Below are positions 3,966 to 48,459 of a stretch of 64,000 bases of DNA, piece by piece (the first letter of the stretch is position 1; each line of letters opens with the position of its first letter). Source of the stretch: Minisyncoccota bacterium (GTDB lineage: Bacteria; Patescibacteriota; Minisyncoccia; Phycocordibacterales; UBA9973); the NCBI GenBank assembly GCA_035510575.1, contig DATKGV010000004.1, positions 88,419 to 152,418 on the forward strand, given 5' to 3'. The position numbers were made by a program, and so were the translations under genes. A model generated the notes under the pieces. It saw only the letters and a program-made list of their open reading frames with translations. It had not been told where the DNA came from and did no database searches.

Positions 3966-4007
3966 CCACATGTCGGACTTGTGGCTAGCCACAAGTCCGA
4001 CATGTGG
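3966..4007. repeat. 42-nt perfect palindrome CCACATGTCGGACTTGTGGCTAGCCACAAGTCCGACATGTGG in the rpoB-rpoC intergenic space
   Basis: The reverse complement, computed by hand, equals the sequence. It lies exactly between the rpoB stop (4018..4020) and the rpoC start (3952). Confidence 0.9.
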
Positions 4008-4017
4008 TCTTTTTCCA

Positions 4018-7561: not shown

Positions 7562-7588
7562 AGTAAGCTAGGACAGTCCTAGCTTACT
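7562..7588. repeat. REP-like palindrome AGTAAGCTAGGACAGTCCTAGCTTACT (core AAGCTAGGACAGTCCTAGCTT)
   Basis: Near-perfect palindrome with an unpaired centre base. It overlaps the last codons and the TAG stop of the RAYT gene. Confidence 0.85.
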
Positions 7589-8259
7589 GAAGTGAAATAA
7601 TTTTCAACAAATTTTTGGAATGACTGCTTTAATTGAAAATAATCTGGAAATGCTACTTTATTTAAAATATTACCTTCCACTCTATCGAGACCAAGATAAT
7701 CAAAATAACTTGAATAATTATATGATTCAAGAAAATCTTTCATTGCTTTATTGTCAACATTTTTATTCTTATCCTGTTTTTCCCAACCAGAAAACTTTAT
7801 ATCAAATACATTTAGATGGATATATGCAAAAAGTTGTCGCATATAATTATCATCTGTTTTTATACATTTTGATTTAAAAGGCCCACCGAATAAAGCACCT
7901 TGTCTTTGATATTTTATATTGAAGAACATTGAATATCCTGTACCTAATTTTTTCATAAATTTAGTAATACCACTATCTATTTCCTGTCTAACCAAAATAT
8001 GAAAATGGTTTGCCATAAGACACCATGCGCCAATTGAAACAAGCGGTTTACCCTTATCTAAAATCATAACTTCAAAAAAAGACTTTTTTTGTTGATTTAT
8101 AAGATTATTTAATTTAAATTCCTCCTGAGAATTTGAAATATAAATAAGCATAATAAATCTTTCAAAATCATATTTTGATTTGAAAATAATTCTTTTATCT
8201 ATACCACGATTGTACAAATGATAATATTCGCCAGTGATAAATGGATCTTTTCGCAACAT
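7579..8259 (-). CDS. HUH-family Y1 transposase (RAYT / IS200-like TnpA)
   Basis: Motifs: YHLYNRG N-terminal block, HUH motif NHFHILV, and the catalytic Tyr block YIHLN (compare YIYINP in E. coli RAYT). Confidence 0.75.
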   Translation of the reverse strand: MLRKDPFITGEYYHLYNRGIDKRIIFKSKYDFERFIMLIYISNSQEEFKLNNLINQQKKSFFEVMILDKGKPLVSIGAWCLMANHFHILVRQEIDSGITKFMKKLGTGYSMFFNIKYQRQGALFGGPFKSKCIKTDDNYMRQLFAYIHLNVFDIKFSGWEKQDKNKNVDNKAMKDFLESYNYSSYFDYLGLDRVEGNILNKVAFPDYFQLKQSFQKFVENYFTSVS

Positions 8260-8268
8260 GTCTTGTAT

Positions 8269-8309
8269 TATATACCATAAGCTAGGACAGTCCTAGCTTA
8301 TGGTATATA
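8269..8309. repeat. REP-like palindrome TATATACCATAAGCTAGGACAGTCCTAGCTTATGGTATATA
   Basis: 41-nt near-perfect palindrome 10 nt upstream of the RAYT start. It shares the 21-nt core with 7562..7588. Confidence 0.85.
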
Positions 8310-11300: not shown

Positions 11301-13923
11301 ATCCCCTGAATAGCAAACGGCCTAACATATCACCTGTGTTTACTGAAAGAAGCGCAGATGGAGTTCCGCGCGCTTTCCAAAATCCCAAGCGGGCAGAGTT
11401 TGTGCCGTTGTTTATTTGTGATGACACAATTCCTCGCGGATCAGAAGTATCAGTAGTAACGACTTGAAGTTTTGTAAGAGGAGCGGTAGTTCCGATTCCC
11501 AGACGATTATTTGTCTCATCATAAGCTGAAGCTCCCATGATTATTAAACCTTTTGTAGCGTTTGAAGTAGAAGTTAAAGTTAGATTTCCTGAAGCGGCAG
11601 TATCGCCGACTAAAGTCGTTCCGCCTGCTATGCCGACATTGTTTTGAAGATAGCCAGTGAGAGATGCAGAAGTCAAATAAGCAACATTGCTTCCCGATGT
11701 TACAAGCCCGCTTGTTCCTACTGTTACATTATTATAAGTTCCTGCAGATGTTCCTGCAGAAGTTAGGAATCCGCCGTAATTTCCCAGATCATTTGTGAAA
11801 GAAGAAAGAGCGGTCGGGAAAGTTGCCAGAGACAAATCACCTCTGAAATATTGAGATGTCGTGCCGGTGGTGATCGTGTTTTGTTTGGCATTGAGGGCAG
11901 TTTGAGTAGCAGTTGATATTGGTTTGTTAGCATCAGATGTATTATCAACATTACTTAGTCCAACTTGAGATTTGGTTAGGCCAGTTAAAGATGAACCATT
12001 GCCATTTGGAGCCAGGAAAACTGTGCCGGCATCAGTAGTGTAGACGCCGTTGGTGACTGTGCCTGCTGTTAATCCTGCGGCGGTACCAGTAATATTTGTG
12101 CCGACTAAAGCAGAAGGAGTTCCAAGGTTGGGAGTGGCAAGCGTCGGAGAGTTTCCAAATACAAGAGATCCGCTTCCCGTTTCATCCGAAATGACTCCTG
12201 CTAATTGAGCAGAAGTGGTAGCGGCAAATGCGGACAAATTATTAGTCGTCAAGGCCACGGTACCTGTAAGATCCGGGAAGGTATAAGTTTTGTCGGAAGA
12301 AGAAAGATGCGCTACATCAAAGATTCCAAATAGTGTCGGCGAAGGGCCATTTTCCAGCATTTTCAGTCCAGCGGAAGAATTATTGAGAACAATATTATAA
12401 GGTGCGGTTTGATTCCAATCCTGAGTCAAAGGACCTAAAGAAAGGACATTAGAAATATTTTGTAAACCATTGCCATAAGATAAGTTTACATTAGCGGATA
12501 GTTGTACCCATTTGGCGAGTGTTCCTGAATAAGTAAATGAAATACCGTAATAAAGAGAACTGGAGTTTTCCACAAAGCGAGCATCACCGCTTGTTGGAGC
12601 AATGCCTGTATAAGTAAAGGCCCCAGGCGTACCGCCTGTCACATTAAATATATAATCTTTAAAACCAGCAAATGTGCCAAAAGGCGCAGTTGAGGATACC
12701 AGCGCCACGCCAAATCGGTCGCCCAAAACCAAAGAATCCAGTTTTACCCACGCGCCATTTTTATATTCTACTATATCGCCCGGAGCAAAAGCGGACCAAA
12801 CACCGGTGTTTCCGCCTGTGTCAATGATATAACCGTCGCCTTCAACAGTGGTTCCGACCGGTGTAGCGGAATTGGCAATAACATTCACAGCTTGAAGCCC
12901 TGTTTTCCAATTCAATCCCATGGCATTATTATCAACGTATGTTTTTACCGCATTTTGCGTTGGATAGAGCGTGTTAGAGGTGCCAAGAGATGTGTTCGTA
13001 GATTTATTGGCAACATCTTCTGGTGTAAACCCTAAGGCAGTATTTACGTCACTCCCAGTAATTCCAGAAATGTATCCGGCAGGATTGGTGGCATTGTAAG
13101 GAGTATAGCCGATAAGTGATGCCACAGAAATATCGCCAGCCCCTAAAAGATTATTAGAATTGATTGTTTTGATATTTGTGCCGGAAACAAGAGTATCTTG
13201 TTTACCAGAAATATCAGTCGTTTGAGTAGCAGCATTTATTGTGAAATTCGGATAAGTGCCGGTAACCGAAGTGATATTAGTTCCCGCTGAAATAGCGACG
13301 GTTTGGTCGGGAGCAATAGATATATCTCCACTACCCAAAAGCGAACTAGAATTGATTGTTTTGATGTTTGTGCCGGCAGGCAAAGTTACCGTGCCGGTAA
13401 AAGTCGGCGAATTGAGAAGTGCGTATAAGCTTGAATCAATTCCTCCCAAGGTCTTGGCATTGATGGCAGCTCCGCTTGAAGTAATACGCCCTCGCGGACC
13501 GAGCGTTTCAAAAGTTATATTATTAGATGAGACCTCCACTTGAAGATAGACGGTATCATTATCTTGGAAATTATAAGTTAGAGCATCAGGATAGCCCGAT
13601 CCTGTATCTCCGATATTCACATCAAAAACACCGTTGGTAACAGAGAGAGTAGCTGTGCCGGGCGAACCTGATGGCCAAAGTTTCGCGCCAGAACCGACAG
13701 TCGGATTATCCCAAATAGAAAATTTAAAATAATAATTTGTGCCTGTTCCTCCCAAAAGAACTCCGTTTGAGTCCGTTAGCCGGCCTTGATAACTAATGAT
13801 ATTAGGAACGCCGGCGGCAGCGTGAGCAACAGAAAAAGAGAAAACGCCCAATATGAACACCGCTAAAATGGCATAGATGCTCTTTGACAAAAAATTATAT
13901 CTCCTTTCAAACATACTTTCCAA
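8344..13923 (-). CDS. Giant (1859 aa) secreted/anchored surface protein with tail-fibre-like repeats and a C-terminal intramolecular-chaperone (peptidase S74-like) domain
   Basis: N-terminal hydrophobic signal/anchor segment. Long G/T/S/N-rich repeat blocks (NTAIG..AL, GIGTTAPxxKLxV). Near the C-terminus, SSDMNLKKNVNTLDG...LALVPVTYNWK...HAGFIAQDVKQIFPDLV...LSLNYLGMMPYAVKAIQEM matches the phage tail-fibre / endosialidase chaperone domain. This is followed by a Pro/Ser/Thr-rich tail. DNA-level internal repeats are visible, for example around 13140..13400. Confidence 0.8.
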   Translation of the reverse strand: MESMFERRYNFLSKSIYAILAVFILGVFSFSVAHAAAGVPNIISYQGRLTDSNGVLLGGTGTNYYFKFSIWDNPTVGSGAKLWPSGSPGTATLSVTNGVFDVNIGDTGSGYPDALTYNFQDNDTVYLQVEVSSNNITFETLGPRGRITSSGAAINAKTLGGIDSSLYALLNSPTFTGTVTLPAGTNIKTINSSSLLGSGDISIAPDQTVAISAGTNITSVTGTYPNFTINAATQTTDISGKQDTLVSGTNIKTINSNNLLGAGDISVASLIGYTPYNATNPAGYISGITGSDVNTALGFTPEDVANKSTNTSLGTSNTLYPTQNAVKTYVDNNAMGLNWKTGLQAVNVIANSATPVGTTVEGDGYIIDTGGNTGVWSAFAPGDIVEYKNGAWVKLDSLVLGDRFGVALVSSTAPFGTFAGFKDYIFNVTGGTPGAFTYTGIAPTSGDARFVENSSSLYYGISFTYSGTLAKWVQLSANVNLSYGNGLQNISNVLSLGPLTQDWNQTAPYNIVLNNSSAGLKMLENGPSPTLFGIFDVAHLSSSDKTYTFPDLTGTVALTTNNLSAFAATTSAQLAGVISDETGSGSLVFGNSPTLATPNLGTPSALVGTNITGTAAGLTAGTVTNGVYTTDAGTVFLAPNGNGSSLTGLTKSQVGLSNVDNTSDANKPISTATQTALNAKQNTITTGTTSQYFRGDLSLATFPTALSSFTNDLGNYGGFLTSAGTSAGTYNNVTVGTSGLVTSGSNVAYLTSASLTGYLQNNVGIAGGTTLVGDTAASGNLTLTSTSNATKGLIIMGASAYDETNNRLGIGTTAPLTKLQVVTTDTSDPRGIVSSQINNGTNSARLGFWKARGTPSALLSVNTGDMLGRLLFRGYDGASYLEMGSIDVGVSGTVASTRIPTYLSFSTATDASPSVLTEAMRIDSAQKVGIGITAPNYKLDVNGDVNIATGSHYKINGTNLTYSDVGALAVGGTAVAVSNATFTTTFTNNGGAGTLTWPAAGATLTIPTGGGTLGSAAFTNANAYEVPLTFSTGLTRSTNTITDNLATGIAGGQTVYGGTAAGENLTLNSTSNATKGKIFFGASSAYDGANIRLGINNTSPVATLDVKSLATRSAVVFSGSGTNDATAGGTYVGNTNSSYVVTISEINPVKTVAKSVGGSGYTVNDVLTLTGGNGAATVKVTSLSSGGCNAMTLLTGGSGYSTGVVATTGGTGTGCTVNISALQGYDMFTWNVDGGASSADTAITLAAQALSNGVTVTFGGKLTHGIGATWTITTTVNVPTLNVADANGGSLFSVYNAGSIGTANPLSILIGARPPAMTGDKNVGIGIGAMNVLTSGSQNIAIGWNTLAANISGGNNTAVGNGALAKTTTTGNTAFGTNALPNVTAAGANVAVGVSALSSFTNGSGNNGSNTGIGNSAGSSITVGYQNTFLGANAGSNASQLVGAINSMALGNAAYTTASNQVVIGNSSITTLGIGTSTPTNILSFGAGADRTMWIENSATDVAPNNLTIQSGSTVAGTSVSNVVGGNLLLNSGLGTGTGASNIIFSTGKTLGSGTTLQTMTEAMRILGNGDVGISNTAPGYLLHVGSASTTANIIVGRFQTSAGTCDVVPISSGFACSSDMNLKKNVNTLDGMAWTETELGTTPITTLDKILALVPVTYNWKVEQDTDAKHAGFIAQDVKQIFPDLVSTDPNTNLLSLNYLGMMPYAVKAIQEMDLKIKDLSSLDTTSATSLGSLITQFLADQANGIADLYAKTIHSSNEICINNTCIDEAQLIQILNNAHVSSTADNSGSSAPSATEPATTDSTVPASDSTAPASDSSVTPPADDTTVPPSDQVVTPPAAPDSTSAPDPVVPPSDAAN

Positions 13924-13992
13924 TTATACAATGATACAAGATTTTTTACAAGATTAAAACAGATTTAGGCGTTAATTATTGGGATATATCGG

Positions 13993-14775
13993 CTACTGTC
14001 TTCTTCTATTTCTTTTAATTCGCGAATTGACGACGAGCAAGTATATGACCGCTGCCAAGAGCAATATTATTATGATGATGAGAATATAAAGGATATGAAT
14101 AAGGTCTTCAACTGTTATGGTAATGGTGGTCGTATAAACATTATCGGAAAGGTGCAATACCGATTGAGTGGGCTGTAATTCTATCGGCTGTTCTGGAACA
14201 TTAGTCGTGGTTGCATTAGGATTTAATTGATTTTGCTGTTCTTCCGGCAGAGGCGAAGGAATATTTTCATTTGCTTTTATTTCGGGCTCGGAAATTGATA
14301 TCGTGCTACCGGATGTGCCATTGAGCGCGTCGCCGGCATTGCCGTCATTTAATAAAACCTTGCCGCTGGCGATATTGATATTCGCATTGCCCACTTCGAT
14401 AGCCCTGAAAGTTATATTGCCTAAAGTGCCGGCTGATCCTTTGTATCCCGGCGATATTATGCCAGCCGAGAAGAAAACTTTGGTCTGGCTTTTATAAGGC
14501 GATCCGGGAGTTTGCATAGTAAAGGTCTGGCCGGGAGACACGCTTACCACCTCAAGTTTGTCAGAACTGAAATTAATTGTCGCTTCAGCGACATTGACTC
14601 TAGCGCCTTTGGTATCGGTCTTGATGGTAACGGTAAAAGTGGAACCGAGAGTTGTATTATAGCTTGCGGGAGTTATATAGAGCGTAGCGGCATCAGCGCG
14701 ATTCGCAAACAGCGCCAAAAAAATCGCTATTACGGCAAAACCAATAATAAATCTTTTTATATTTTCTTTATGCAT
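13993..14775 (-). CDS. Cohesin-like domain protein with signal peptide and C-terminal TM anchor
   Basis: Signal peptide ...ANRADA. Cohesin-like block TLYITPASYNTTLGSTFTVTIKTD...VNVAEATINFSSDKLEVVSVSPG. C-terminal hydrophobic helix plus RIKRNRRRQ. Confidence 0.6.
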   Translation of the reverse strand: MHKENIKRFIIGFAVIAIFLALFANRADAATLYITPASYNTTLGSTFTVTIKTDTKGARVNVAEATINFSSDKLEVVSVSPGQTFTMQTPGSPYKSQTKVFFSAGIISPGYKGSAGTLGNITFRAIEVGNANINIASGKVLLNDGNAGDALNGTSGSTISISEPEIKANENIPSPLPEEQQNQLNPNATTTNVPEQPIELQPTQSVLHLSDNVYTTTITITVEDLIHILYILIIIIILLLAAVIYLLVVNSRIKRNRRRQ

Positions 14776-15913
14776 GATGATTTATGCTATAGCGCCTGAT
14801 TAAAACAAAGCCACCGACAATAATAATAATTATTCCAAGTATAGCACAATATGAAGCGAATGTTGAAAGATATCCGCGATAGTAAACAGCCGCTACGCTT
14901 TCGTTGCCAGCCAAATCAGTGGCTTTTATTTTTACAAGATTTCCAAAAAGAGGCGGATCAAGCGGATATGGGCTCGCAGCTTCATGATAAAATCCGAACC
15001 AGCCGGTTTTCACTTTATAGTTTGCAATGCCGGATGCCTTATCGACAGCGAAAAAATTCAAGAATGATTTGCCGTTGAACATGGAATCATTTTTATCGAT
15101 AATATCCGACAAAAATGTCGGGGCGGTCTTGTCAATTTGCACTCGATAGACCCCGGCCTCTTCCAATATGCCATTAACGGGAATCGCAAGCTTGAAATAA
15201 TATATTCCATCAGGCAGATTATCGTATGTAATAGGGCCTGTGATCGGTTTCGGCTGCATGCTTGGAATAATTTCCGGATTGCTGCCGAAGCTATAGCTGT
15301 AAAGCTCGCCCGTTTTCGCGCCGACAAGAATGACTACGGTATTGTCGCGATACCATTTATTTTCATCCGGATGCGTCGGAGAAGTTATGCTATAAAGTTT
15401 GTTATTCCCAGATAAGACGGAGAAAGCAAGCGGCCGCATGGTGAGAGGAACGACAGTTCCCAATCCGTCATGAAGAAGGACTCGTGTGGGATTAATCGTC
15501 ATTATAACGGCATTGCCGGCCATTTTGGCCTTAAAAACTGTCCGCAGTAATGGGATATGAGAGCCATTTATGCCGCCCGGCGCGCCTCCGGTGAAAGTTA
15601 TAACGCCCGGAGCTATGACTTTCGGCTGATCAACCCAAAGAAGCAAGGCCGATGAGCCGATTGAAACCTCGGTGCTCTCGAGGATATCTGGCGAATAGTA
15701 AAGCTTCGCATCGACAATATTTATGGTTTTGCCTTCCGTGTCTAAAAACCAATCAGCTGAAAAAGTATCGCCGGCATAGACCGTCTGCTCGGCTACGCTG
15801 ACTGAAAGATTGGCGGCATTTGCGATATGGCGAACGCCGGTAAAAGCGCCTAACAGCATGATTAAGAAAATTAATAATTTGCAAGTTATTTTTTTATTAT
15901 CCTGTCCAATCAT
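14768..15913 (-). CDS. Second cohesin-like surface protein with C-terminal TM anchor
   Basis: Signal peptide. Block SVSVAEQTVYAGDTFSADWFLDTEGKTINIVDAKLYYSPDILEST resembles cohesin. C-terminal TM ILGIIIIIVGGFVLI. Confidence 0.55.
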   Translation of the reverse strand: MIGQDNKKITCKLLIFLIMLLGAFTGVRHIANAANLSVSVAEQTVYAGDTFSADWFLDTEGKTINIVDAKLYYSPDILESTEVSIGSSALLLWVDQPKVIAPGVITFTGGAPGGINGSHIPLLRTVFKAKMAGNAVIMTINPTRVLLHDGLGTVVPLTMRPLAFSVLSGNNKLYSITSPTHPDENKWYRDNTVVILVGAKTGELYSYSFGSNPEIIPSMQPKPITGPITYDNLPDGIYYFKLAIPVNGILEEAGVYRVQIDKTAPTFLSDIIDKNDSMFNGKSFLNFFAVDKASGIANYKVKTGWFGFYHEAASPYPLDPPLFGNLVKIKATDLAGNESVAAVYYRGYLSTFASYCAILGIIIIIVGGFVLIRRYSINHHA

Positions 15914-17237
15914 AAAGCATTATTGAAAGATCAATGACATCGACTATGCCATCCTTATTAATATCCGCCCTTGACGTTGCCGGCGGCTTCTTATGCCAGT
16001 AATACAGTAGCATGGAAAAATCAATTATGTTAACTTTACCATCCTTGTTCAAATCGCTGCGCTTATATGAAACAACAGACGGCTTGACTGAAGTGGTTCC
16101 GACGCTAAAAGCCACAATATTGCTTGGATCGGTAATGCGGTCATTTATGGCTGCTCTGGAAAAAGTGCTGTGATTCCCAATAGCCAGCACTGAGGTGTCA
16201 AACTGCTTGAACCAAATGCCGGCGGTTGATGAGATTATTTTCTTTATGAATTCTTGCGCCGAATGCACGTACATCGTAACCTCGGCTTTCGGAACGGTCA
16301 TGCCGAAAATATTAATCGGGTCGCCTTTCTTGACTTCCGTATTGCTTACTCCGATGGTCGGAGCCAAGAAAATATTATTAATATGAATAGTTATGGAATC
16401 GCTGATGCTGACCGGGAAGCTGTAAGTCGGCGATTTCAATCCGTTCGCATCCACGGCATAGACGCCGAAGTTATAATAAGCTGTCGGAAGATTCGCCACA
16501 GTTACGTTGAAAGCGGCGCCCGGATCGGCTGTAGTGACCGAAGCTATCGTGCCGTCTTTAAGAATAGTGACTTTCGTATTCGGATAGGCCATGCCGGAAA
16601 TTTCAACAGATCCGCCGTAAGTTTGCGGATTGCCATTTCCGCCGCCATTATTATTTGGAGGAGGAGTAATTGGATTAGCGCCATTTGGCACGACAGAAAT
16701 TTGAGTAGAAAAAGCGATTGGAAAATTGCCGGTTGTCTTTGCCTTGACGATGAAATAATAAGTTACTCCATTAACTAATCCTCCTTTGGTGAAAGAATTC
16801 ACATTGCCAACATCTTCAAACGTGTAGGAATATGGCGTAGTACTGACGCCGACATCATATCCGATAATTGGAGGATGGCCGATTATAACCGGAGTTGTCC
16901 AGACCAATACGACGCTGCCGGCAGTATTTGTCGAGCTGGTTCCAAGAAGAGTGAATGTGCTGCTGTTATAATATTGAAAGCCGCTCCATAATTGGAAATC
17001 CGAAGATGATGATTTGCCGATGACCATTTGTCCGAGCGATTGCCCTAACCCGAAATTGGCCGAGGAACTGCTGCCAAGGCCTTCCGTAATGACCGGATTT
17101 AATACGGTAAAATTGCTTGAGGATATGGTTGCGCCAAAGCCCGGCATCGGTCTTGAAAAACCGACGATAACGACAATAAGAATTAAAATAGGGAAAAAAT
17201 AGAAATATCTCTTACTCACAAGCATATTATACAACAA
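15897..17237 (-). CDS. Secreted protein with FN3-like region and C-terminal type-I dockerin
   Basis: The C-terminus has two canonical dockerin Ca-binding repeats: SDLNKDGKVNIIDFSMLLYYW and ADINKDGIVDVIDLSIMLYDW. There is an N-terminal signal/anchor segment. Confidence 0.75.
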   Translation of the reverse strand: MLYNMLVSKRYFYFFPILILIVVIVGFSRPMPGFGATISSSNFTVLNPVITEGLGSSSSANFGLGQSLGQMVIGKSSSSDFQLWSGFQYYNSSTFTLLGTSSTNTAGSVVLVWTTPVIIGHPPIIGYDVGVSTTPYSYTFEDVGNVNSFTKGGLVNGVTYYFIVKAKTTGNFPIAFSTQISVVPNGANPITPPPNNNGGGNGNPQTYGGSVEISGMAYPNTKVTILKDGTIASVTTADPGAAFNVTVANLPTAYYNFGVYAVDANGLKSPTYSFPVSISDSITIHINNIFLAPTIGVSNTEVKKGDPINIFGMTVPKAEVTMYVHSAQEFIKKIISSTAGIWFKQFDTSVLAIGNHSTFSRAAINDRITDPSNIVAFSVGTTSVKPSVVSYKRSDLNKDGKVNIIDFSMLLYYWHKKPPATSRADINKDGIVDVIDLSIMLYDWTG

Positions 17238-17279: not shown

Positions 17280-17310
17280 AATCAGCCATAAGTCCGACTT
17301 ATGGCTGATT
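17280..17310. repeat. 31-nt palindrome AATCAGCCATAAGTCCGACTTATGGCTGATT at the trmD 3' end, followed by a T-run on the plus strand
   Basis: The right arm encodes the last codons and the TAA stop of trmD. It shares the GTCGGACTT/AAGTCCGAC core with the rpoB-rpoC palindrome. Confidence 0.8.
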
Positions 17311-18090
17311 TTTATTATTTTTCCATTCTTCTATTTTTTTACGATCTCCTGACAGCAAGACCTTCGGAACTTTATATTTTTTATTGTTATATATTAATAT
17401 TTCTGGCTTGGTATAAATTTCGCTTGACGATATCCGCTCTTCTTCGCGGGAATCAAAATTGCCAAGCACTCCCTTTACTTGCCGAGAAATTGAATCAATC
17501 AAAACCATGGCTGGTATTTCCCCTCCGGTTAAGACATAATCTCCGATTGATATTCTTCTTGCCCCGCCAAGGCGGAGTGAATCTTTAAGAATCTTATCAA
17601 CACGCGCATCAATGCCTTCATAGCGGCCGCAAATCATTATGATGTCGGTATATTTTTTAGAAAAATTCTTGGCCAAAGCTGTCGTAAATTTTTCCGCTGA
17701 TGGAACAAAATTAATAACAAGAGTTTTTGGGCGAAGATTTTGAAAAGATTTTTGAAGTCTGGCCTCGCCTTTTTTAATTTTTCTAGTATTGGCGAGGAGA
17801 TCCGAGGACTTCAAAAATCTTTTCAAAATTGAAGCCCGGACTGATTCAACAGCATTTATAATAGGTTCTGCCATCATCACCATGCCCGGACCGCCGGCAT
17901 AAGGCCGATCATCAATACGTAAAGACATATTGCCGTCAGGCCAGATCTTTTTATATTTGCCGGTGGCAAATTTGCGGGGATTAATGAAGGATACAGAAAT
18001 TTTTTTTAACTTTATCGCCCGCCCCAAAATGGACTCCTTAAGATACGAGTCAAACATTTCCGGAAACAAAGTAATAATATGGAAATTCAT
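17299..18090 (-). CDS. trmD: tRNA (guanine37-N1)-methyltransferase
   Basis: MNFHIITLFPEMFDSYL and further TrmD blocks. Sits in the rpsP-KH-trmD context. Confidence 0.9.
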   Translation of the reverse strand: MNFHIITLFPEMFDSYLKESILGRAIKLKKISVSFINPRKFATGKYKKIWPDGNMSLRIDDRPYAGGPGMVMMAEPIINAVESVRASILKRFLKSSDLLANTRKIKKGEARLQKSFQNLRPKTLVINFVPSAEKFTTALAKNFSKKYTDIIMICGRYEGIDARVDKILKDSLRLGGARRISIGDYVLTGGEIPAMVLIDSISRQVKGVLGNFDSREEERISSSEIYTKPEILIYNNKKYKVPKVLLSGDRKKIEEWKNNKNQP

Positions 18091-26633: not shown

Positions 26634-27593
26634 TTAATTCGCTTTTTTTGTAAGAATCTCTATCGCTTTAGTTAAAAGAGGTACCATGTTGTCATACATT
26701 TTAAGATTCGGAATTTCTTCAAGCGCAAACCATCTTGCGTCATCCAATCCTCCAGTGCCTTTTTCAAGGACAATATTTGCATACGGAGATTCGCCGAGAA
26801 AGAATACGACTTGCTTGCGAATTTTCCCTTTTTCCGGATGCGAGGCTATATATTCATTGCGTCCAAGCAATTCTTTTATTTTAATATCAAGGCCCATTTC
26901 TTCCTTTATCTCGCGAATGGCGCCTTGTTCTTCATTTTCATTTTCTTCAATGCTTCCTTTAGAAAGAGTCCAGTAGCCAAACACGTCATGAACGAAGGCG
27001 AAATAAATTTGGCTGTTTTCTATCGCATAAACGACGGCGCCGGCTTTTTTCTCTATCGGGAATTTAGCGGGATCAGTTTCAAAATGCTTGTTCTTCCTGC
27101 TGACATCATTCTTGCCTGGCTCGCCTATTTCCTTATAGACCCCGCCCAGAACTCCGTTTATGAATTTGCTGGAGTTTTCCCCGCCGAAACTCTTGGCAAG
27201 CTCGATTGATTCGTTGATTGCCACTTTGGGCGGCACTTCCTTATGATCGCCGAACAATAATTCATATAATCCTATACGCAGAATATTGCGGTCCACTATT
27301 GATATCTTATCAATCGGCCAATCCGGAGCGGCTTTCTCGATGATTTCATCGATAATCGGCTTTTTCTTTATAATGCCGAGAAAAAGCTCCTGCATAAATT
27401 GCGAGTCGTCAAGCCCCGGTCCGAATTCTAGAATGTTGCGATTAAGCATCTCTTTTGGATTCATTTCATTATTCAATGAAAAATCCCACTCAAAGAGCGT
27501 CTGAAGAACAATTGAACGTGAAAGGTGCCTGTTTGCCATAAAAAATCTAGAAAATAAAATCTTGAAATGTTTCTTGTATAAGAAACATTTCAA
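26634..27593 (-). CDS. nusB: NusB-like antitermination domain fused to a NUDIX hydrolase
   Basis: N-terminal NusB blocks (RHLSRSIVLQTLFEWDF...ILRIGLYELLF...FINGVLGGV). C-terminal Nudix box GSIEENENEEQGAIREIKEEMGL. Confidence 0.75.
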   Translation of the reverse strand: MKCFLYKKHFKILFSRFFMANRHLSRSIVLQTLFEWDFSLNNEMNPKEMLNRNILEFGPGLDDSQFMQELFLGIIKKKPIIDEIIEKAAPDWPIDKISIVDRNILRIGLYELLFGDHKEVPPKVAINESIELAKSFGGENSSKFINGVLGGVYKEIGEPGKNDVSRKNKHFETDPAKFPIEKKAGAVVYAIENSQIYFAFVHDVFGYWTLSKGSIEENENEEQGAIREIKEEMGLDIKIKELLGRNEYIASHPEKGKIRKQVVFFLGESPYANIVLEKGTGGLDDARWFALEEIPNLKMYDNMVPLLTKAIEILTKKAN

Positions 27594-27597
27594 GATT

Positions 27598-27807
27598 TTA
27601 TTTTTTCTTTTTAGCTTGCTTCTTCTCTACTTTCTTTACCACATCTATAACCTTGCGCCCGTTGTAAAAACCGCAATTTTTGCAAATTATATGAGTTTCC
27701 TTTGCTCCCTTGCAATTTGAACACGTGGCAAAAACCTTGGCTTTCAAGGCATGATGTGATCGGCGGTTCCCCGTATGAGCTCGCGTATGTCGCATTCGTA
27801 CTACCAT
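27598..27807 (-). CDS. rpmF: 50S ribosomal protein L32
   Basis: RMRHTRAHTGNRRSHHAL N-terminal block plus a CxxC...CxxC zinc ribbon. Confidence 0.7.
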   Translation of the reverse strand: MVVRMRHTRAHTGNRRSHHALKAKVFATCSNCKGAKETHIICKNCGFYNGRKVIDVVKKVEKKQAKKKK

Positions 27808-28730: not shown

Positions 28731-30461
28731 ATGGAAAATAACGAACATTTAGCGCATATTCGCCACTCTTTAGCTCACCTCTTGGGCGCATCCGTGCTTG
28801 AGCTATATCCTGGGTCTAAACTTACCCTCGGTCCTGCCATAGATAACGGCTTTTATTACGATATTGATGTTGCAGGAAAAATAACTGATGCTGATTTGGG
28901 AAAAATTGAAAAAAAGATGCATGAACTGCTGAAAAAATGGACAACTTTTGAAAAGCAAATAATTAACGAAAAGGAAGCAAAAAAAATATTTAAAGGCAAT
29001 GAATATAAAGAAGAACTTATAAATGGCATAGAAGAAAAAGGCGAAGAAATAACCTTATACACTTCCGGAGAATTTACTGATCTCTGCCGCGGCGGGCATG
29101 TGGAGAATATGAAAGAAATAAAACTGGATTCATTCAAGCTTGATCGAGTGGCTGGAGCATATTGGCGCGGAGACGAGAAAAATAAAATGTTGACTCGCAT
29201 TTACGGGCTAGCTTTCGAGACAAAAGAAGAGCTTGAAAATTATTTAAAAATGCGCGAGGAAGCGGAAAAAAGAGATCATAAAAGACTTGGGAAAGAATTA
29301 GGATTATTAATGTTCCATGAGACAGCTCCCGGCATGCCCTACTGGTTGCCAAAAGGCCTGATTATTTATAAAGAACTTGAAAATTATTGGAGAATTGAAC
29401 ATAGTAAGCTTGGATATCAAGAAATTTCTAGTCCCCTTGTAAACAAGGCCGATCTTTGGAAAATTTCCGGCCATTGGGATCATTACAAAGATGATATGTT
29501 TATCGCCGATATGGGAGAAGGTGAAGTTTATGGAATTAAACCGATGAATTGTCCTAATGCAATGATTGTTTTTAAATCAATGCAAATTAGTTATAAGGAC
29601 TTACCTCTTCGTCTTTCGGATACTGACCGTTTGCATAGATACGAACGTTCTGGAACTTTAAACGGACTTTTGCGTTGCAGATCTTTCCAGCAAGATGATT
29701 CGCATAATTATATTTCTGAAGAAATGATTGAATCCGAATACTCTTCTATTATGTCTATATGTAAGAATTTTTACGGAATTTTCGGGCTTGAATATAAGTT
29801 TCGTCTTGGCACACGCCCAGAAAATTTTATGGGTGATATTGAAACGTGGAATAAAGCGGAGGAGGCATTAAAAAGAGTTCTGAATTCCTCAAAGAAAGAA
29901 TATTCTGTAGCAGAAAAAGATGGAGCATTTTATGGACCTAAGATTGATATTATTATGAAAGATGCTCTCGGTCGCGATTGGCAAATGGGAACTATGCAGT
30001 TAGATTTTCAACAACCTAGACGTTTTGAATTGGAATATACGGATAAAGACGGCAAGAAAAAAACTCCAGTCGTTGTTCATAGGGTTATATATGGGTCGCT
30101 TGAGCGTTTTATAGGAATTTTGATAGAGCATTTTGCTGGCGCTTTCCCTGTCTGGCTATCTCCTGTTCAGGTTGCAATTTTGCCGATATCAGAACATCAG
30201 AAAGAGTATGCCGATACTATCTATAAAAAATTAAAAGATTCAGATATAAGAGTAGAATTAGACGATACGAATGAGTCTTTAGGCAAGCGCATTCGCAGCG
30301 CCAAAATGCAAAAAATTCCTTATATCGTAGTCGTTGGAGACAAGGAAAAAGATGCAGAGACAATAACAGTTGAAGGGCGAGTGGAAAAACTGGAAGGAAT
30401 TACTGTAGAAAAATTCTTGGAAAGAATTCAAAAAGAAATAAAAGAAAGAACTTTAAACTAA
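28731..30461 (+). CDS. thrS: Threonine--tRNA ligase (short form)
   Basis: Class II aaRS motifs: RDHKRLGKELGLLMFHETAPGMPYWLPKG and an anticodon-binding C-terminus. Confidence 0.9.
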   Translation: MENNEHLAHIRHSLAHLLGASVLELYPGSKLTLGPAIDNGFYYDIDVAGKITDADLGKIEKKMHELLKKWTTFEKQIINEKEAKKIFKGNEYKEELINGIEEKGEEITLYTSGEFTDLCRGGHVENMKEIKLDSFKLDRVAGAYWRGDEKNKMLTRIYGLAFETKEELENYLKMREEAEKRDHKRLGKELGLLMFHETAPGMPYWLPKGLIIYKELENYWRIEHSKLGYQEISSPLVNKADLWKISGHWDHYKDDMFIADMGEGEVYGIKPMNCPNAMIVFKSMQISYKDLPLRLSDTDRLHRYERSGTLNGLLRCRSFQQDDSHNYISEEMIESEYSSIMSICKNFYGIFGLEYKFRLGTRPENFMGDIETWNKAEEALKRVLNSSKKEYSVAEKDGAFYGPKIDIIMKDALGRDWQMGTMQLDFQQPRRFELEYTDKDGKKKTPVVVHRVIYGSLERFIGILIEHFAGAFPVWLSPVQVAILPISEHQKEYADTIYKKLKDSDIRVELDDTNESLGKRIRSAKMQKIPYIVVVGDKEKDAETITVEGRVEKLEGITVEKFLERIQKEIKERTLN

Positions 30462-30464
30462 ATT

Positions 30465-30487
30465 TCCCATAGGTCTGACCTATGGGA
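30465..30487. repeat. REP-like palindrome TCCCATAGGTCTGACCTATGGGA
   Basis: Palindrome with arms of about 11 bp and an unpaired centre base. Lies 3 nt after the thrS stop and contains the TAG stop of RAYT2. Confidence 0.85.
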
Positions 30488-31205
30488 TTTGGTCATGGTC
30501 TAAATTAATCCAATTAAAAAGATCATTTATATGAGAATTCTTTAGATATTCAGGTAAAAATTTTTTATTAATAATTTTAATTTCTTTTCTATTTTCTAAA
30601 AAATAATCATAAAAACTGGAGTAGTAGTATTTTTTTAAATATTCTTTCGCTTTATTTTTATCTTTAATTCCCTTTTGTTTCCAGTCTGATTGAATTAATT
30701 TTATAGGGTTTAGATGTATATATGAAAATAAATAATTAAAATAGTTCTCTTCTTTTACAATTTTAGATTTAAATTTTCCTTCAAATAATGATCCAGTACG
30801 ACTATATTTTTTATTAAAGTACATTGCATAAGCAGTAGATAGTTTCCTCATGAATTCAGTAATTGGATTATATTCTTCTTCCCATAGGTCAGACCTATGG
30901 GAAATAACAAATAAATGAAAATGGTTAGGCATTAACACCCAAGCTAGTATAGATACAATAGGTGTTCCTATTTCAAAATCAAAAGCTTCAATTTTGGGAT
31001 TAACTATATTTTCACGAAAAACAAGCTTTCTTTTGGAATTACAGACATAAAGCAATTTAATAAAATGATCATAATCTTCTTTGTCTAAGAAAATATCATT
31101 TTTACCATTTCCACGATTATATAAATGGTAATATTCTTTACAAACTAAATTTTCTACTCTTAATCCCATAGTTATATTATATAATAATAGATACAAATCT
31201 CCCAT
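30480..31205 (-). CDS. HUH-family Y1 transposase (RAYT / IS200-like), second copy type, with an in-frame internal palindrome
   Basis: Motifs YHLYNRG, NHFHLFV and YIHLNP. The likely true start is MGLRVENL (ATG rc 31167..31169). The annotated ATG at 31203..31205 is itself created by the upstream palindrome. Residues SHRSDLWEE are encoded by the internal palindrome at 30879..30903. Confidence 0.7.
   Translation of the reverse strand: MGDLYLLLYNITMGLRVENLVCKEYYHLYNRGNGKNDIFLDKEDYDHFIKLLYVCNSKRKLVFRENIVNPKIEAFDFEIGTPIVSILAWVLMPNHFHLFVISHRSDLWEEEYNPITEFMRKLSTAYAMYFNKKYSRTGSLFEGKFKSKIVKEENYFNYLFSYIHLNPIKLIQSDWKQKGIKDKNKAKEYLKKYYYSSFYDYFLENRKEIKIINKKFLPEYLKNSHINDLFNWINLDHDQIP
30879..30903. repeat. 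Internal copy of the RAYT2 palindrome (TTCCCATAGGTCAGACCTATGGGAA) inside the RAYT2 coding sequence
   Basis: Same arms as the flanking copies, but the centre base is inverted (GGTCAGACC versus GGTCTGACC). It is in-frame and corresponds to an extra segment relative to RAYT1, placed right after the HUH motif. Confidence 0.85.
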
Positions 31206-31225
31206 AGGTCTGACCTATGGGAGAT
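31197..31225. repeat. REP-like palindrome ATCTCCCATAGGTCTGACCTATGGGAGAT upstream of RAYT2
   Basis: Palindrome with 14-bp arms and the same core as 30465..30487. Confidence 0.85.
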
Positions 31226-31263
31226 TTAGTTAACTTATAAACCAAGAAAAATCTTAAATTAAT

Positions 31264-35724: not shown

Positions 35725-36498
35725 TTAAAATTGATTCAAACGAAGATCTCCTTGATAAAAAATTCTGACATCGGGAATATTCCAGCGAATCATCGCTATG
35801 CGGTCAAGGCCTCCGCCAAAAGCGAAACCTTGAACTTTTCCCGGATCAAGACCCGCATTGCGAAGAACATTCGGATGAATCATTCCTCCTCCCATCATTT
35901 CAAGCCATCTGCCATTAAATTTGGCATGAACTTCAACGGACGGTTCGGTAAACGGGAAAAAGCTCGGTCTGAATTCTATTTCCACATCTTCTCCGAGAAC
36001 TTTTTTATAAAATTCAATAAGTATGCCTTTTAAGTTGGCAAGATTAATATCTTTTCCAATCATTACGCCGTCAACTTGATAGAACTGCATTTCATGGGTA
36101 ATATCGGTCGCTTCATTGCGGAATACTTTTCCGACAGAAATAAAAGCTCCTGTATCTTTGCCTTCCTTTGCCAATCTTTCAAGCATGCGTATAGAAACGC
36201 TTGTGGTGTGAGTGCGAAGCACCAAATTAGAAGCAGAAAAAGAAGTTTTTTCGCGGTCTGGTGAACCAACCCGAGGACCCGAAAAAACTTCTTTTTCTGC
36301 TGGAGATTTAATCCAAAAAGTATCCTGCATATCGCGGGCAGGATGATCTTTGGACACATTTAAAGCATCAAAGTTATACCATTCTGTTTCAAGCTCAGGA
36401 CCCATGGCAATTTCAAATCCAAGTTTTGAGAATACAGAATATGTTTCTTCTTGAAGCAAAGTTAACGGATGCAAACTTCCCTTTGGTATATCTTCCAT
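35725..36498 (-). CDS. pheS: Phenylalanine--tRNA ligase alpha subunit (short, lacks N-terminal extension)
   Basis: Class II motifs FRPSFFPFTEPSVEV and GFAFGGGLDRIAM. Confidence 0.9.
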   Translation of the reverse strand: MEDIPKGSLHPLTLLQEETYSVFSKLGFEIAMGPELETEWYNFDALNVSKDHPARDMQDTFWIKSPAEKEVFSGPRVGSPDREKTSFSASNLVLRTHTTSVSIRMLERLAKEGKDTGAFISVGKVFRNEATDITHEMQFYQVDGVMIGKDINLANLKGILIEFYKKVLGEDVEIEFRPSFFPFTEPSVEVHAKFNGRWLEMMGGGMIHPNVLRNAGLDPGKVQGFAFGGGLDRIAMIRWNIPDVRIFYQGDLRLNQF

Positions 36499-46037: not shown

Positions 46038-46071
46038 TGCTACAAACTCTGCACGTGCAGAGTTTGTAGCA
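46038..46071. repeat. 34-nt perfect palindrome TGCTACAAACTCTGCACGTGCAGAGTTTGTAGCA (copy 1)
   Basis: The reverse complement, computed by hand, equals the sequence. Lies between the purD start and the stop of the Cys-rich gene. Confidence 0.9.
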
Positions 46072-47915: not shown

Positions 47916-48398
47916 ATGAACATGTCTATTGTTATGGAAATTTTAGAAGAACTTTGGAACACTGAGCTTAATTATAAAGGAATTAAAGTAAATATTTTTG
48001 GTATTCCTCGTTTTAAACAATATTCATCTAAAAGCGTTAGGGCAACTATTGATCGCCTAAAAAGAAAGGGCGTCATAGAAAAAGAATTAACTGGAATAGT
48101 ACTCTCAAAATATGGCAAAGAATATGTCAGAAGAAAAATTGATTCATTAAAACAATTTGATAGACCAGAAAATATATCTAAAGATAAAAATCTTCTAGTA
48201 ATGTTTGATATACCTGTTGAGAAAAAAGGGGAACGCGAATGGTTCCGATGGCATCTCAAAAAATTTGGTTATATTATGATTCAACATAGTGTATGGGTTG
48301 GACCATCTCCCCTACCCAAAGAATTTCTTGATTATGTTAAAAGTATAAAACTTGATAAATGTATTAAAACTTTTAAACTTGAAAAACCTTATAAATAA
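47916..48398 (+). CDS. Minimal PaaX-like regulator: winged-HTH plus Cas2-like domain
   Basis: The N-terminal wHTH (VRATIDRLKRKGVIEKE...LSKYGKEYVRRK) parallels PaaX (VRTALFRLNKEGWL...LSDKGLRLTRR). The block LLVMFDIPVEKKGEREWFRWHLKKFGYIMIQHSVWV fits the Cas2 / PaaX-central-domain pattern (beta-strand with Asp, basic helix, G...Q.SVF/W). Confidence 0.65.
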   Translation: MNMSIVMEILEELWNTELNYKGIKVNIFGIPRFKQYSSKSVRATIDRLKRKGVIEKELTGIVLSKYGKEYVRRKIDSLKQFDRPENISKDKNLLVMFDIPVEKKGEREWFRWHLKKFGYIMIQHSVWVGPSPLPKEFLDYVKSIKLDKCIKTFKLEKPYK

Positions 48399-48401
48399 GA
48401 A

Positions 48402-48435: not shown

Positions 48436-48459
48436 TTCTTGGAAAACGATTACATGAGA

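Follow-up and report, generated by a model that had tools for sequence, protein, structure and literature searches.

The stretch of DNA analysed here (64,000 nucleotides from a Candidatus Paceibacterota genome, Patescibacteria/CPR; "the window" in the following) raises the question of why genes should end inside palindromes. Three of its genes, i.e., trmD and the two transposase-like genes RAYT1 and RAYT2, have their stop codon within a perfect palindrome, exactly as described by a first-pass annotation, which took all three cases as REP insertions at gene 3' ends that act as terminators or mRNA stabilisers and slightly remodel C-termini. The last codons of trmD, AAT CAG CCA TAA (N-Q-P and stop, with TAA at 17299-17301), are the 12 final bases of the gene and occupy the 5' arm of AATCAGCCATAAGTC-C-GACTTATGGCTGATT (15-bp arms, one central base), such that this palindrome codes only for N-Q-P and the stop of TrmD. 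RAYT1 ends with ...T S V S TAG and RAYT2 with ...D Q I P TAG, the respective stop codons (7579-7581 and 30480-30482) being located inside the 3' palindromes listed in Table 1.

Table 1. Genes and palindromes of the window with their positions and distinguishing properties.
Feature	Position	Strand	Remarks
trmD (tRNA m1G37 methyltransferase), 263 aa	17299..18090	minus	Pfam tRNA_m1G_MT PF01746, 114 bits; ends ...EEWKNNKNQP (stop)
RAYT1, 226 aa, Y1 (HUH) transposase-like	7579..8259	minus	Pfam Y1_Tnp 27.1 bits (cut-off 23)
RAYT2, 230 aa, RAYT-like Y1 transposase	30480..31172	minus	Pfam Y1_Tnp 24.7 bits (cut-off 23)
D-type REP-like palindrome	17280-17310	.	AATCAG-CCATAAGTC-C-GACTTATGG-CTGATT; overlaps trmD end
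Doublet of two D-like palindromes, inverted	3966-4007	.	CCACATGTCGGACTTGTGG CTAG CCACAAGTCCGACATGTGG; REPIN-like
A-type palindrome at RAYT1 3' end	7562-7588	.	AGTAAGCTAGGAC-A-GTCCTAGCTTACT; contains RAYT1 stop
A-type palindrome, 20-bp arms	8269-8309	.	10 nt upstream of RAYT1 start
B-type palindrome at RAYT2 3' end	30465-30487	.	TCCCATAGGTC-T-GACCTATGGGA; contains RAYT2 stop
B-type palindrome within RAYT2 CDS	30879-30903	.	in frame (ISHRSDLWE)
B-type palindrome, 16-bp arms	31195-31227	.	22 nt upstream of RAYT2 start
C-type palindrome, intergenic	46038-46071	.	TGCTACAAACTCTGCAC/GTGCAGAGTTTGTAGCA
C-type palindrome, 1 mismatch	47858-47891	.	25 nt upstream of PaaX_M/Cas2-like gene 47916..48398 (Pfam, NCBIfam)
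C-type palindrome, 21-bp arms	48397-48440	.	shares 2 bases with TAA of gene 47916..48398
Unique AT-rich palindrome	27551-27604		

We compared the number of perfect hairpins (stem of at least 10 bp, loop of at most 8 nt) in the window with 30 dinucleotide-preserving shuffles. Given 11 such hairpins versus a shuffle mean of 0.63 (maximum 3), palindromes are far more frequent than expected by chance, and stems of at least 13 bp are found eight times in the window and never in the shuffles. The count of at least five palindrome families with about ten copies likewise holds, namely types A, B, C and D plus one unique AT-rich palindrome. Six B/D-type hairpins (the doublet counting as two) and two A-type hairpins make up the repeated palindromes of these types. 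Type C is a separate family, for which no transposase partner was seen and no match was found among all fetched loci. Since the entire window gave no hit in Rfam (gathering thresholds) or in a tRNA/tmRNA scan, the palindromes are not a known RNA family and do not mark a tRNA-adjacent integration site.

We consider it probable that the palindromes represent a REP/RAYT-type system of this genome, with the trmD palindrome as a dispersed copy and the stop overlap of the RAYT genes as a conserved layout. REPs and REPINs with their RAYT (REP-associated tyrosine transposase) are known from E. coli and Pseudomonas (PMC3116915, PMC3337134, PMC5581495; structure 4ER8).

RAYT1 and RAYT2 appear to be distant Y1 HUH transposases. 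Both exceed the Pfam cut-off for Y1_Tnp, and the alignment of RAYT1 with the RAYT2 family contains the HUH motif NHFH as well as the conserved tyrosine motif YIHLNP. Their best NCBIfam match is REP_Tyr_transpos (NF047646), with scores (RAYT1 26.4 bits, RAYT2 41.9 bits) that are in both cases far below the cut-off of 80. A sequence search of the PDB gave no match for RAYT2. The top PDB fold match of its AF2 model (pLDDT 83.8) is 4ER8, i.e., the E. coli RAYT with REP hairpin (E = 4.5e-6, TM 0.42/0.56), followed by the TnpA structures of ISDra2, IS608 and IS200, such that the predicted fold of RAYT2 is RAYT-like. Some RAYT2 homologues also carry the JGI name 'REP element-mobilizing transposase RayT'. 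Each gene is bracketed by copies of its own palindrome type, i.e., A for RAYT1 (unit of 748 bp, 7562-8309) and B for RAYT2 (unit of 763 bp, 30465-31227). The Y1_Tnp matches, the fold match with 4ER8 and the cognate flanking palindromes together bear out the earlier view that the palindromes are REP-like and associated with RAYT-like transposases.

We next relate this anatomy to other genomes. RAYT2 holds a further B-type palindrome directly 3' of its HUH motif NHFH, which is missing from RAYT1 according to the alignment with the RAYT2 family. The complete arrangement of 5' palindrome, RAYT gene with internal palindrome, and 3' palindrome with the stop codon is also observed at loci L014, L036, L042, L043 and L059, while L030 is similar with no stop seen within its 3' palindrome. 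RAYT genes between copies of their own palindrome type are found at these six loci as well as at L106, L107 and L140. Internal and flanking copies never differ in type, and 10 RAYT genes from other genomes likewise have a palindrome at the position after the HUH motif. Of the 120 proteins closest to RAYT2, 65 contain HRSDLW and 38 have a C-terminal P. For type A, palindrome pairs about 700-745 nt apart bracket ORFs of 217-265 aa that end within the 3' palindrome, and the RAYT1-like layout (A type, stop in the 3' palindrome) recurs on metagenome contigs L106, L107, L111, L140, L146 and L152. Given this recurrence in other genomes and the P-ending RAYT2 homologues, the stop within the 3' palindrome of RAYT1 and RAYT2 belongs to the conserved, compact organisation of the RAYT/REP unit and did not come about by a secondary insertion. 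That is, the three overlaps are not three independent REP insertions at gene 3' ends, and trmD is the only one of them that has the appearance of a dispersed copy landed on the end of a host gene.

The core of the trmD palindrome, CCATAAGTCNGACTTATGG (covarying form CCATAGG...CCTATGG), is present in several copies per genome in many Patescibacteria MAGs. A search for the core CCATARGTCNGACYTATGG among 185,579 species genomes returned 90 stretches, mostly from Paceibacterota, Nomurabacteria and other Patescibacteria MAGs. About 35 matches are expected by chance over this whole collection, which accounts for single core matches outside CPR. In related MAGs (e.g., CAZKPK01, JAENWX01, JBAYHJ01, CAYHBT01, MFUC01), the exact core is found 3-7 times per MAG, spread over different contigs, a copy number that is low compared to classical REPs. 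The arms covary (AAG..CTT in 37 copies, AGG..CCT in 66, mixed in 7), which yields the family consensus CCA-TA[A/G]-GTC-N-GAC-[T/C]TA-TGG. REPIN-like inverted doublets are found in the window (3966-4007) and at four loci elsewhere (spacers 20-22 nt). A strict pattern for a second hairpin family (GTCCTCGG...CCAGAC, perfect adjacent arms) matched only trmD copies. We tallied 93 copies with their context: 52 are intergenic, 21 are in frame in host genes, 10 are in frame in RAYT genes, 7 contain a RAYT stop and 3 a host stop (put at 2-3 overall), such that 10/93 overlap a stop codon. The second host-stop case is a PBP2-like gene that ends with TSITP and stop. An 83-aa ORF that also ends in a palindrome looks spurious.

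RAYTs derive from IS200/IS605 transposases, and a reading of RAYT1 and RAYT2 with their flanks as ordinary IS200/IS605 insertion sequences of about 750 bp therefore overlaps with the RAYT reading. The palindromes would then be the left- and right-end hairpins, and solo copies would be remnants or MITE-like derivatives. Such an assignment is in accordance with the HUH/Tyr single-strand transposase fold (ISDra2, IS608 and IS200 TnpA are matched as well, besides Pfam Y1_Tnp), with compact units of about 0.75 kb that are terminated on either side by a hairpin, one of which contains the stop, with several A-type palindromes at unit spacing on L106, and with RAYT1 and RAYT2 scores below the RAYT equivalog cut-off. 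The ends of the units, however, are mutually identical perfect palindromes, unlike the distinct left and right ends of IS200/IS605 elements, and only one unit of each type is present, i.e., there is no sign of several full-length RAYT units of one type within the 64-kb window. Dispersed solo and doublet palindromes are in the majority compared to transposase-linked ones (52 + 21 + 3 vs. 17 of 93), the proteins are with 226-230 aa longer than the matched TnpA chains (about 125-150 aa), and RAYTs come out on top in both the structural and the NCBIfam comparison. We thus regard ordinary insertion sequences as an unlikely explanation.

We now turn to the reading frames of the palindromes and to the copies inside genes. 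The core reads Pro-stop (CCA TAA or CCA TAG) in frame 1, SH[K/R]SDLW in frame 2, and xIGxTYG or AISxTYG in frame 3. Since it is palindromic, the same readings are obtained in either orientation, with one frame closed by a stop and the other two open. A copy in frame is thus tolerated in two frames, while the third can be used only at the extreme 3' end of a gene, where it replaces the stop. REPs are extragenic by name and definition, while 31/93 of the copies here are located in frame inside ORFs. The affected host genes (Pfam-confirmed) encode LigA, MnmA, CysS, PurH, UvrB, TopA, MurC, MurB, TruB and MiaA. A DHKSDLW in a Ser/Thr kinase was counted as chance, since this motif is native to kinases and the palindrome there has mismatches. 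For two sites, orthologues without the in-frame palindrome are at hand, namely the internal RAYT2 copy (compared to RAYT1) and a loop of RNase HII, for which about one third of 120 homologues are without insert, while in many others one peptide or two in a row seem to be encoded by palindromes. This variable occupancy is the sole indirect hint that the copies are mobile. Longer in-frame hairpins were found in trmD and pheS (70-105 nt) as well as in murB and rnhB, with gene-specific arms that are perfectly complementary. This wider rule, i.e., that the palindrome is often in frame inside genes including RAYT2, had been missed by the first-pass annotation. The copy at 17280-17310 is the stop-frame variant and not itself an in-frame insertion.

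For trmD we compared C-termini and loci of orthologues. The TrmD tail following EEW varies between 3 and 10 aa among 120 homologues, of which 83 end in K. None of the 120 ends in P or NQP except the identical protein, and the D-type palindrome is absent from the trmD 3' end at all seven orthologue loci read as DNA. Based on this unique ending and the absence of the palindrome at these loci, the trmD palindrome is best read from sequence comparison as a lineage-specific acquisition that replaced the last few codons. The idea that it lengthened the protein was rejected, as the tail of the window protein (7 aa) is within the ordinary range. Of the suggested remodelling of C-termini, what remains is that the final three residues of TrmD are palindrome-coded; the effect is minimal given a normal tail length. 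An empty trmD site in a close strain was not found, and the palindrome is present in 3/3 other contigs with exactly the same TrmD. Two of these three contigs break off 70-75 nt past the trmD stop codon. The trmD copy is one covarying base pair apart from the B type of RAYT2, and no D-type RAYT is encoded within the window. Its outer extension (AATCAG/CTGATT) is perfectly complementary and copy-specific as in other copies, which is not explained by simple cut-and-paste of a fixed element and counts against such an insertion.

Alternatively, the palindromes could be host-evolved intrinsic terminators or stabilisers of mRNA 3' ends, for which the overlap with the stop saves space in a compact genome. 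The sense-strand RNA of the trmD palindrome is indeed predicted to fold very stably (14-bp stem; -29.6 kcal/mol for the whole region of 121 nt, z = -3.9). Some family members elsewhere, e.g., at five loci, have A-runs and T-runs on their flanks (AAAAATTCCCATAGG...CCTATGGGAATTTTT) like bidirectional terminators, and 25/52 intergenic copies of other genomes are close to a T-rich tract. Furthermore, palindrome 30465-30487 is placed between two convergent genes, beginning 3 nt past the TAA of a thrS-like gene (28731..30461, Pfam). For trmD itself, however, the sense strand continues with AGCCAAGACC after the hairpin and has no U-tract. A hairpin followed by a T-run exists only on the plus strand, i.e., antisense to trmD, where the T-run corresponds to the Lys/Asn codons of the tail, and the palindrome was thus rejected as trmD terminator. 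The sister doublet 3966-4007 separates the stop codon of rpoB (4018-4020) from the start of the conserved N-terminal part of RpoC (ATG 3952), where transcription must pass, and the reading frame is open through it. About one third of the related copies (31/93) are in frame within ORFs of essential and RAYT genes, the same 19-nt core is found in unrelated contexts of many genomes, which argues for spread instead of local evolution, and loops of 0-1 nt are ill-suited to RNA hairpins as such. The terminator role that had been proposed is therefore unsupported for trmD, and we assign host-evolved terminators or stabilisers in general a low probability. A terminator role is possible for some of the intergenic copies given their T-rich tracts, as is a putative stabilisation of the mRNA 3' end by the trmD palindrome. 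Mobile hairpins at or just past host stops are also known as terminator-like MITEs or REPs (SPRITE, Correia elements). The trmD case differs from these in that the stem itself contains the stop codon and that no U-tract follows on the sense strand. In E. coli, a REP located no more than about 15 nt from a stop codon lowers expression through ribosome stalling.

Finally, operators of a dimeric DNA-binding protein with a regulatory position at gene ends are highly improbable: perfect dyad symmetry, conserved half-sites, and C-type copies that flank a wHTH/PaaX-like gene (one 25 nt upstream of its start) would suit them, but the gene next to types A, B and D is a transposase instead of a regulator, many unrelated loci as well as coding sequences contain copies, and the covarying arms keep their pairing, as expected for a hairpin and not for a fixed duplex recognition sequence.

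For the REP/RAYT-type system, we thus propose the following scenario. RAYT-like Y1 (HUH) transposases acting on single strands would spread, or would once have spread, short hairpin palindromes, with each RAYT gene placed between copies of its own palindrome type and RAYT as the presumed mover. A dispersed copy of the consensus family given above would have landed on the last trmD codons, i.e., the trmD copy presumably arrived by insertion. It could have been tolerated in its stop frame at the extreme 3' end, where it provides N-Q-P and TAA on a C-terminal tail that varies freely. The copy is probably close to neutral, with stabilisation of the mRNA 3' end as the most it might do, and the consequence for trmD alone is small (three C-terminal residues changed).

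With known REP/REPIN-RAYT systems, the one described here shares repeated short hairpin palindromes, inverted doublets, a Y1 HUH-like gene flanked by cognate palindromes, and RAYT-REP as best fold match, with two RAYTs that each have a different palindrome type. It differs in its host (Patescibacteria, CPR), in proteins (226-230 aa) below the RAYT equivalog cut-off, in perfect palindromes with loops of 0-1 nt, and in a low exact-core copy number. Furthermore, roughly one copy in three is not extragenic but part of a gene's reading frame, and a conserved internal copy is built into the RAYT gene, besides the stop in its 3' copy.

The in-frame copies can also be related to Rickettsia palindromic elements (RPEs), i.e., selfish palindromic DNA of about 100-150 bp found in frame in protein-coding genes and with no known transposase (PMC10969869). 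As for RPEs, the palindromes here are in frame in housekeeping genes that are unrelated to each other, which gain a short peptide and stay intact. In contrast to RPEs, the unit is 19-31 bp (about 60-70 bp as doublet) and linked to a RAYT-like gene, and one of its frames is a stop frame that is able to end a gene. The longer in-frame hairpins of trmD and pheS are closer to RPEs in size.

Going beyond the window, we tentatively suggest, at somewhat less than even confidence, that RAYT-associated REP palindromes of CPR are coding-compatible mobile elements, that the RAYT gene is built from and possibly regulated or processed via its own hairpins, and that a process which makes or keeps palindromes at the DNA level shapes proteins throughout CPR. 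The first part is suggested since essential genes are colonised in two open frames while genes are ended in the third, the same loops are revisited across lineages, and palindromes are kept perfect by covariation. The second part is based on the internal copy after the HUH motif together with the stop in the 3' copy, and the third on the long hairpins in trmD, pheS, murB and rnhB that keep gene-specific arms complementary.

To our knowledge, work on RAYTs has been confined almost entirely to Proteobacteria. A literature search for REP/RAYT or in-frame palindromes in CPR/Patescibacteria returned nothing relevant, which is not proof of novelty. A system of the REP/RAYT kind would here operate in ultra-small Candidate Phyla Radiation genomes with little intergenic space, in which palindromes overlap stops, sit in frame in essential genes and form part of the transposase gene. 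If this holds genome-wide, it would account for part of the many odd insertions in CPR proteins. The palindromes also affect gene calling and assembly, and they offer a natural system for the mutual accommodation of a selfish hairpin and a compact genome.

A fourth stop overlap in the window, between the TAA of gene 47916..48398 and the C-type palindrome 48397-48440, is trivial since only 2 bases are shared.

The first-pass annotation had placed the stop codons of trmD and of two Y1 (HUH) transposase-like genes, RAYT1 and RAYT2, within perfect palindromes, and both coordinates and shuffle counts show that this description is correct. Perfect hairpins with a stem of at least 10 bp occur 11 times in the window and those of at least 13 bp 8 times, compared to a mean of 0.63 and to 0, respectively, in dinucleotide-preserving shuffles. 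We distinguish four types (A to D), of which B and D differ in a single base pair altered on both arms. Around the conserved core, the outer extension is perfectly complementary but specific to each copy (total palindrome at most 49 nt), e.g., in the two A copies beside RAYT1, the two B copies flanking RAYT2, and in loci L005, L054, L070 and L090 from other genomes or metagenome contigs. Such extensions are not accounted for by cut-and-paste of an element with fixed ends.

Palindromes, hairpins and associated genes of the window
Feature	Position	Sequence	Context
trmD (Pfam tRNA_m1G_MT, 114 bits)	17299..18090, minus	...GAA TGG AAA AAT AAT AAA AAT CAG CCA TAA	3' end in minus-strand reading
D type (core CCATAAGTC-N-GACTTATGG), trmD copy	17280-17310	AATCAGCCATAAGTC-C-GACTTATGGCTGATT (+ strand)	perfect; first 12 bases are the last four trmD triplets (N, Q, P, stop)
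D type, variant doublet	3966-4007		4-nt spacer; between rpoB stop and conserved RpoC N-terminus
rpoB stop/upstream ATG overlap	4016-4020	TAATG	
Conserved RpoC start	3952		frame open through the doublet (HMSDLWLATSPTCG) to here
RAYT1	7579..8259, minus		ends T-S-V-S-TAG
A type (core TAAGCTAGGAC-N-GTCCTAGCTTA), 3' copy	7562-7588	AGTAAGCTAGGAC-A-GTCCTAGCTTACT	contains RAYT1 stop
A type, upstream copy	8269-8309		flanks RAYT1
Surface-type genes	8344-17237		adjoin RAYT1
RAYT2	30480..31172, minus		ends D-Q-I-P-TAG
B type (core CCCATAGGTC-N-GACCTATGGG), 3' copy	30465-30487	TCCCATAGGTC-T-GACCTATGGGA	contains RAYT2 stop
B type, internal copy	30879-30903		within RAYT2
B type, upstream copy	31195-31227		flanks RAYT2
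C type (core TGCTACAAACTCTGCAC and complement)	46038-46071, 47858-47891, 48397-48440	TGCTACAAACTCTGCAC, then GTGCAGAGTTTGTAGCA	intergenic; 34-44 nt, perfect (47858-47891 with 1 mismatch)
PaaX_M/Cas2-like gene	47916..48398		160 aa; surrounded by C copies
AT-rich perfect palindrome	27551-27604		unique; 25-bp arms, 4-nt loop
nusB-NUDIX fusion ORF	26634..27593		start overlapped by AT-rich palindrome
trmD internal hairpin	17737-17829		93 nt, in frame; perfect 23-bp arms, 47-nt loop
pheS ORF	35725..36498		
pheS hairpin	36232-36301	codes PAEKEVFSGPRVGSPDREKTSFSA	in frame; perfect 22-bp arms, 26-nt loop

The host is a Candidatus Paceibacterota (Patescibacteria/CPR) MAG. Both RAYT proteins score weakly above the cut-off of Pfam Y1_Tnp (27.1 and 24.7 bits vs 23) and far under that of their best NCBIfam model, REP-associated tyrosine transposase (26.4 and 41.9 bits vs 80). 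Their alignment shows a common NHFH (HUH motif) and YIHLNP tyrosine motif. For the AlphaFold model of RAYT2 (pLDDT 83.8), the best match is the E. coli RAYT with bound REP hairpin (4ER8, E = 4.5e-6), followed by the ISDra2, IS608 and IS200 transposases. The family is very large (over 7,500 members with E < 1e-10), its proteins being labelled 'transposase' or 'REP element-mobilizing transposase RayT' by their sources.

RAYT2 belongs to a recurrent unit. Palindrome triplets spaced like those of the window (30467, 30882, 31202), about 320 and 410 nt apart, are found in L014, L030, L036, L042 and L043, each with a RAYT ORF of 229-258 aa (stop-to-stop) and copies upstream, inside and at the 3' end. 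The internal copy is read in frame as ISH[R/K]SDLW immediately after the HUH motif, and the 3' copy contains the RAYT stop codon in L014, L036, L042, L043, L059 and the window; in L030 the gene apparently ends just ahead of it. The type of the internal copy always matches the flanking ones (B with B, D with D), and at the protein level B and D differ by a conservative (R/K) or a silent (CTA/TTA Leu) change, i.e., the DNA palindrome is kept and not the peptide alone. Among the 120 closest RAYT2 homologues, HRSDLW occurs in 65, most others having the RSDL core with a different outer residue pair (PRSDLG, HRSDLC, DRSDLL), and P is the last residue in 38, the mark left by CCA/CCC before TAG/TAA in the palindrome. 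RAYT1 lacks the internal segment in the alignment. Its arrangement also recurs, since A-type pairs 700-745 nt apart enclose ORFs of 217-265 aa with TAG in the 3' palindrome in metagenome contigs (L106, L107, L111, L140, L146); L152 represents the window's own RAYT1 locus. REP insertion had been proposed for all three gene ends. Given this recurrence in other genomes, the stop-in-palindrome of RAYT1 and RAYT2 is a built-in feature of a RAYT/REP unit and not the result of palindromes landing on a gene end, so that the proposal is retained for trmD only.

For trmD, the palindrome starts directly after ...EEWKNNK, which by itself would make a typical C-terminus for this family. Across 120 homologues, 3-10 residues follow the conserved EEW (7 in the window protein) and the C-terminal residue is K in 83, while P is found only in the window protein and its identical database twin. 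None of seven orthologue loci read as DNA has such a palindrome at the trmD 3' end; they carry plain TAA or TAG stops. Looking through homologue C-termini and orthologue DNA for the same ending without palindromic DNA left the insertion reading standing. From these comparisons, we infer that a D-type copy came down on or beside the ancestral stop, took its place and added N-Q-P. No empty site was found in a close strain, the palindrome being present in all three other contigs with identical TrmD.

Two contigs with identical trmD (L001, L002) both end 70-75 nt past its stop codon, i.e., 50-60 nt beyond the palindrome, which suggests that short-read assemblies break in this region. The run of large surface-type genes adjoining RAYT1 includes one for a 1859-aa protein containing Peptidase_S74 (endosialidase chaperone), one for a protein with a cohesin domain and, directly downstream of trmD, one for a dockerin/fn3/Big_6 protein; a cohesin-dockerin pair is unusual in a CPR genome.

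With regard to dispersal, an exact scan for CCATARGTCNGACYTATGG in one genome per species (596 Gb) gave 110 matches in 90 stretches, mostly in MAGs of Paceibacterota, Nomurabacteria and other Patescibacteria; a MAG has several copies, located on different contigs. About 35 matches are expected by chance, which fits the isolated non-CPR occurrences (Proteobacteria, Streptomyces, others). The arms covary (AAG/CTT n=37, AGG/CCT n=66, mixed n=7, the latter mostly chance matches), and inverted doublets with a spacer of 20-22 nt occur in L064, L077, L078 and L086. Repeated covarying hairpins and inverted doublets are hallmarks of REPs/REPINs (PMC3116915, PMC5581495). In metagenome loci (L098, L100-L103, L105, L115, L118, L122, L126, L128, L129, L136, L139, L145, L149, L151), the A-type core lies inside a longer, highly conserved repeat CAATGAAAAAAGCTAGGACAGTCCTAGCTTTACGCATTA, with many copies in contigs of 43-50% G+C (FWPU01...); this is apparently a REP family of another organism.

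As a palindrome, the core gives identical readings in both orientations: P-stop in frame 1, SH[K/R]SDLW in frame 2, and xIGxTYG or AISxTYG in frame 3. We classified the context of 93 Patescibacteria-type copies by simple ORF rules. Intergenic or unclear contexts account for 52, in-frame positions within host genes for 21 and within RAYT genes for 10; 7 copies contain a RAYT stop and 3 a host-gene stop, i.e., that of the window's trmD, of a PBP2-like gene in L022 (ends TSITP*) and of one probably spurious ORF. Pfam-confirmed hosts of in-frame copies are LigA, MnmA, CysS, PurH, UvrB (doublet), TopA, MurC, MurB, TruB and MiaA. A loop of RNase HII has no insert in about a third of 120 homologues; in many of the rest there are one or two peptides of palindrome-coded appearance, in several variants (PIGQTYG, AISRTYG, TSPTGG, TCQTCG, IGPSY). 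Back-translation of these peptides suggests a palindrome superfamily CCA-NNN-GTC-N-GAC-NNN-TGG, together with a site that either is a hot spot or has preserved an old insertion in palindromic form.

Such copies also bear on the suggested function as terminators or mRNA stabilisers. The trmD hairpin is strong in RNA folding and followed by AGCCAAGACC on the sense strand; the hairpin/T-run pattern of our scan lies on the antisense strand, its T-run being complementary to Lys/Asn codons. The rpoB-rpoC doublet has an open frame throughout, and RpoC may have a predicted palindrome-coded N-terminal extension. Whether intergenic or part of such an extension, the doublet must be crossed by transcription and perhaps translation. 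This and the abundance of in-frame copies speak against a general role as terminators. Some copies in other genomes have A-runs and T-runs at their sides and may well act as terminators, and a role in protecting mRNA 3' ends is possible. In our best account, the palindromes would be selfish or domesticated REP-type elements whose stop frame is tolerated at the extreme gene end only; we infer both their mobility and RAYT activity.

The system works like REP/REPIN-RAYT and has most of the defining traits in common with it, namely hairpins in repeated copies, doublets, a single RAYT-like gene between cognate palindromes and a predicted RAYT-like fold. It differs, however, in that its palindromes are not confined to 'extragenic' DNA, its proteins score under the curated RAYT cut-off, the RAYT gene has an extra internal palindrome, the stop codon lies inside the 3' palindrome, and in-frame copies occur in essential genes of other Patescibacteria genomes. 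The in-frame behaviour is closer to Rickettsia palindromic elements (PMC10969869) than to classical REPs. Our literature search turned up no account of either REP/RAYT or palindromes read in frame for CPR bacteria; this speaks weakly for novelty.

C-type palindromes could act as operators or represent a different mobile unit. One copy (47858-47891) lies 25 nt upstream of the start of the PaaX_M/Cas2-like gene, which also has wHTH-like matches. In L095, a trmD orthologue locus, a PaaX_M gene directly follows trmD with another palindrome in between.

Longer in-frame hairpins were also observed. The one inside trmD codes ILKRFLKSSD...ARLQKSFQN, an insert present in about a third of close homologues and missing from the others. 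Its counterparts in orthologue loci lie at L094 1753-1863, L096 1761-1834, L097 1761-1834, L154 561-634 and L155 543-638. In 8 orthologues its arm sequences vary, with long perfect arms (15-33 bp) kept in 6 and partly decayed in 2; RNAalifold gives 27 pairs, 14 of them changed on both sides, with G-U almost absent. Arm 1 opens with 12 nt of native sequence (ILKR), so arm 2 holds an inverted copy of host sequence. The trmD and pheS hairpins share a central motif GTCCTCGG...CCAGAC, the pheS arms being gene-specific. Further long in-frame hairpins with gene-specific arms have the same core (L081 7804-7892), a related core (L067 6885-6989, murB) or no common core that we could see (L019 7054-7125, rnhB). 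Their structure suggests either palindrome conversion or a core element joined to an inverted duplicate of the host flank.

Finally, an element of about 125 nt with perfect arms of 21-24 nt and a structured interior of 80-82 nt is conserved between the KH-domain gene and trmD in L094 (1270-1393), L096 (1360-1486) and L156 (151-278). The window lacks it, and the two genes abut there. A near-identical copy is found in L090 (5375-5502), and both a MITE and an unknown RNA are conceivable identities for the element.
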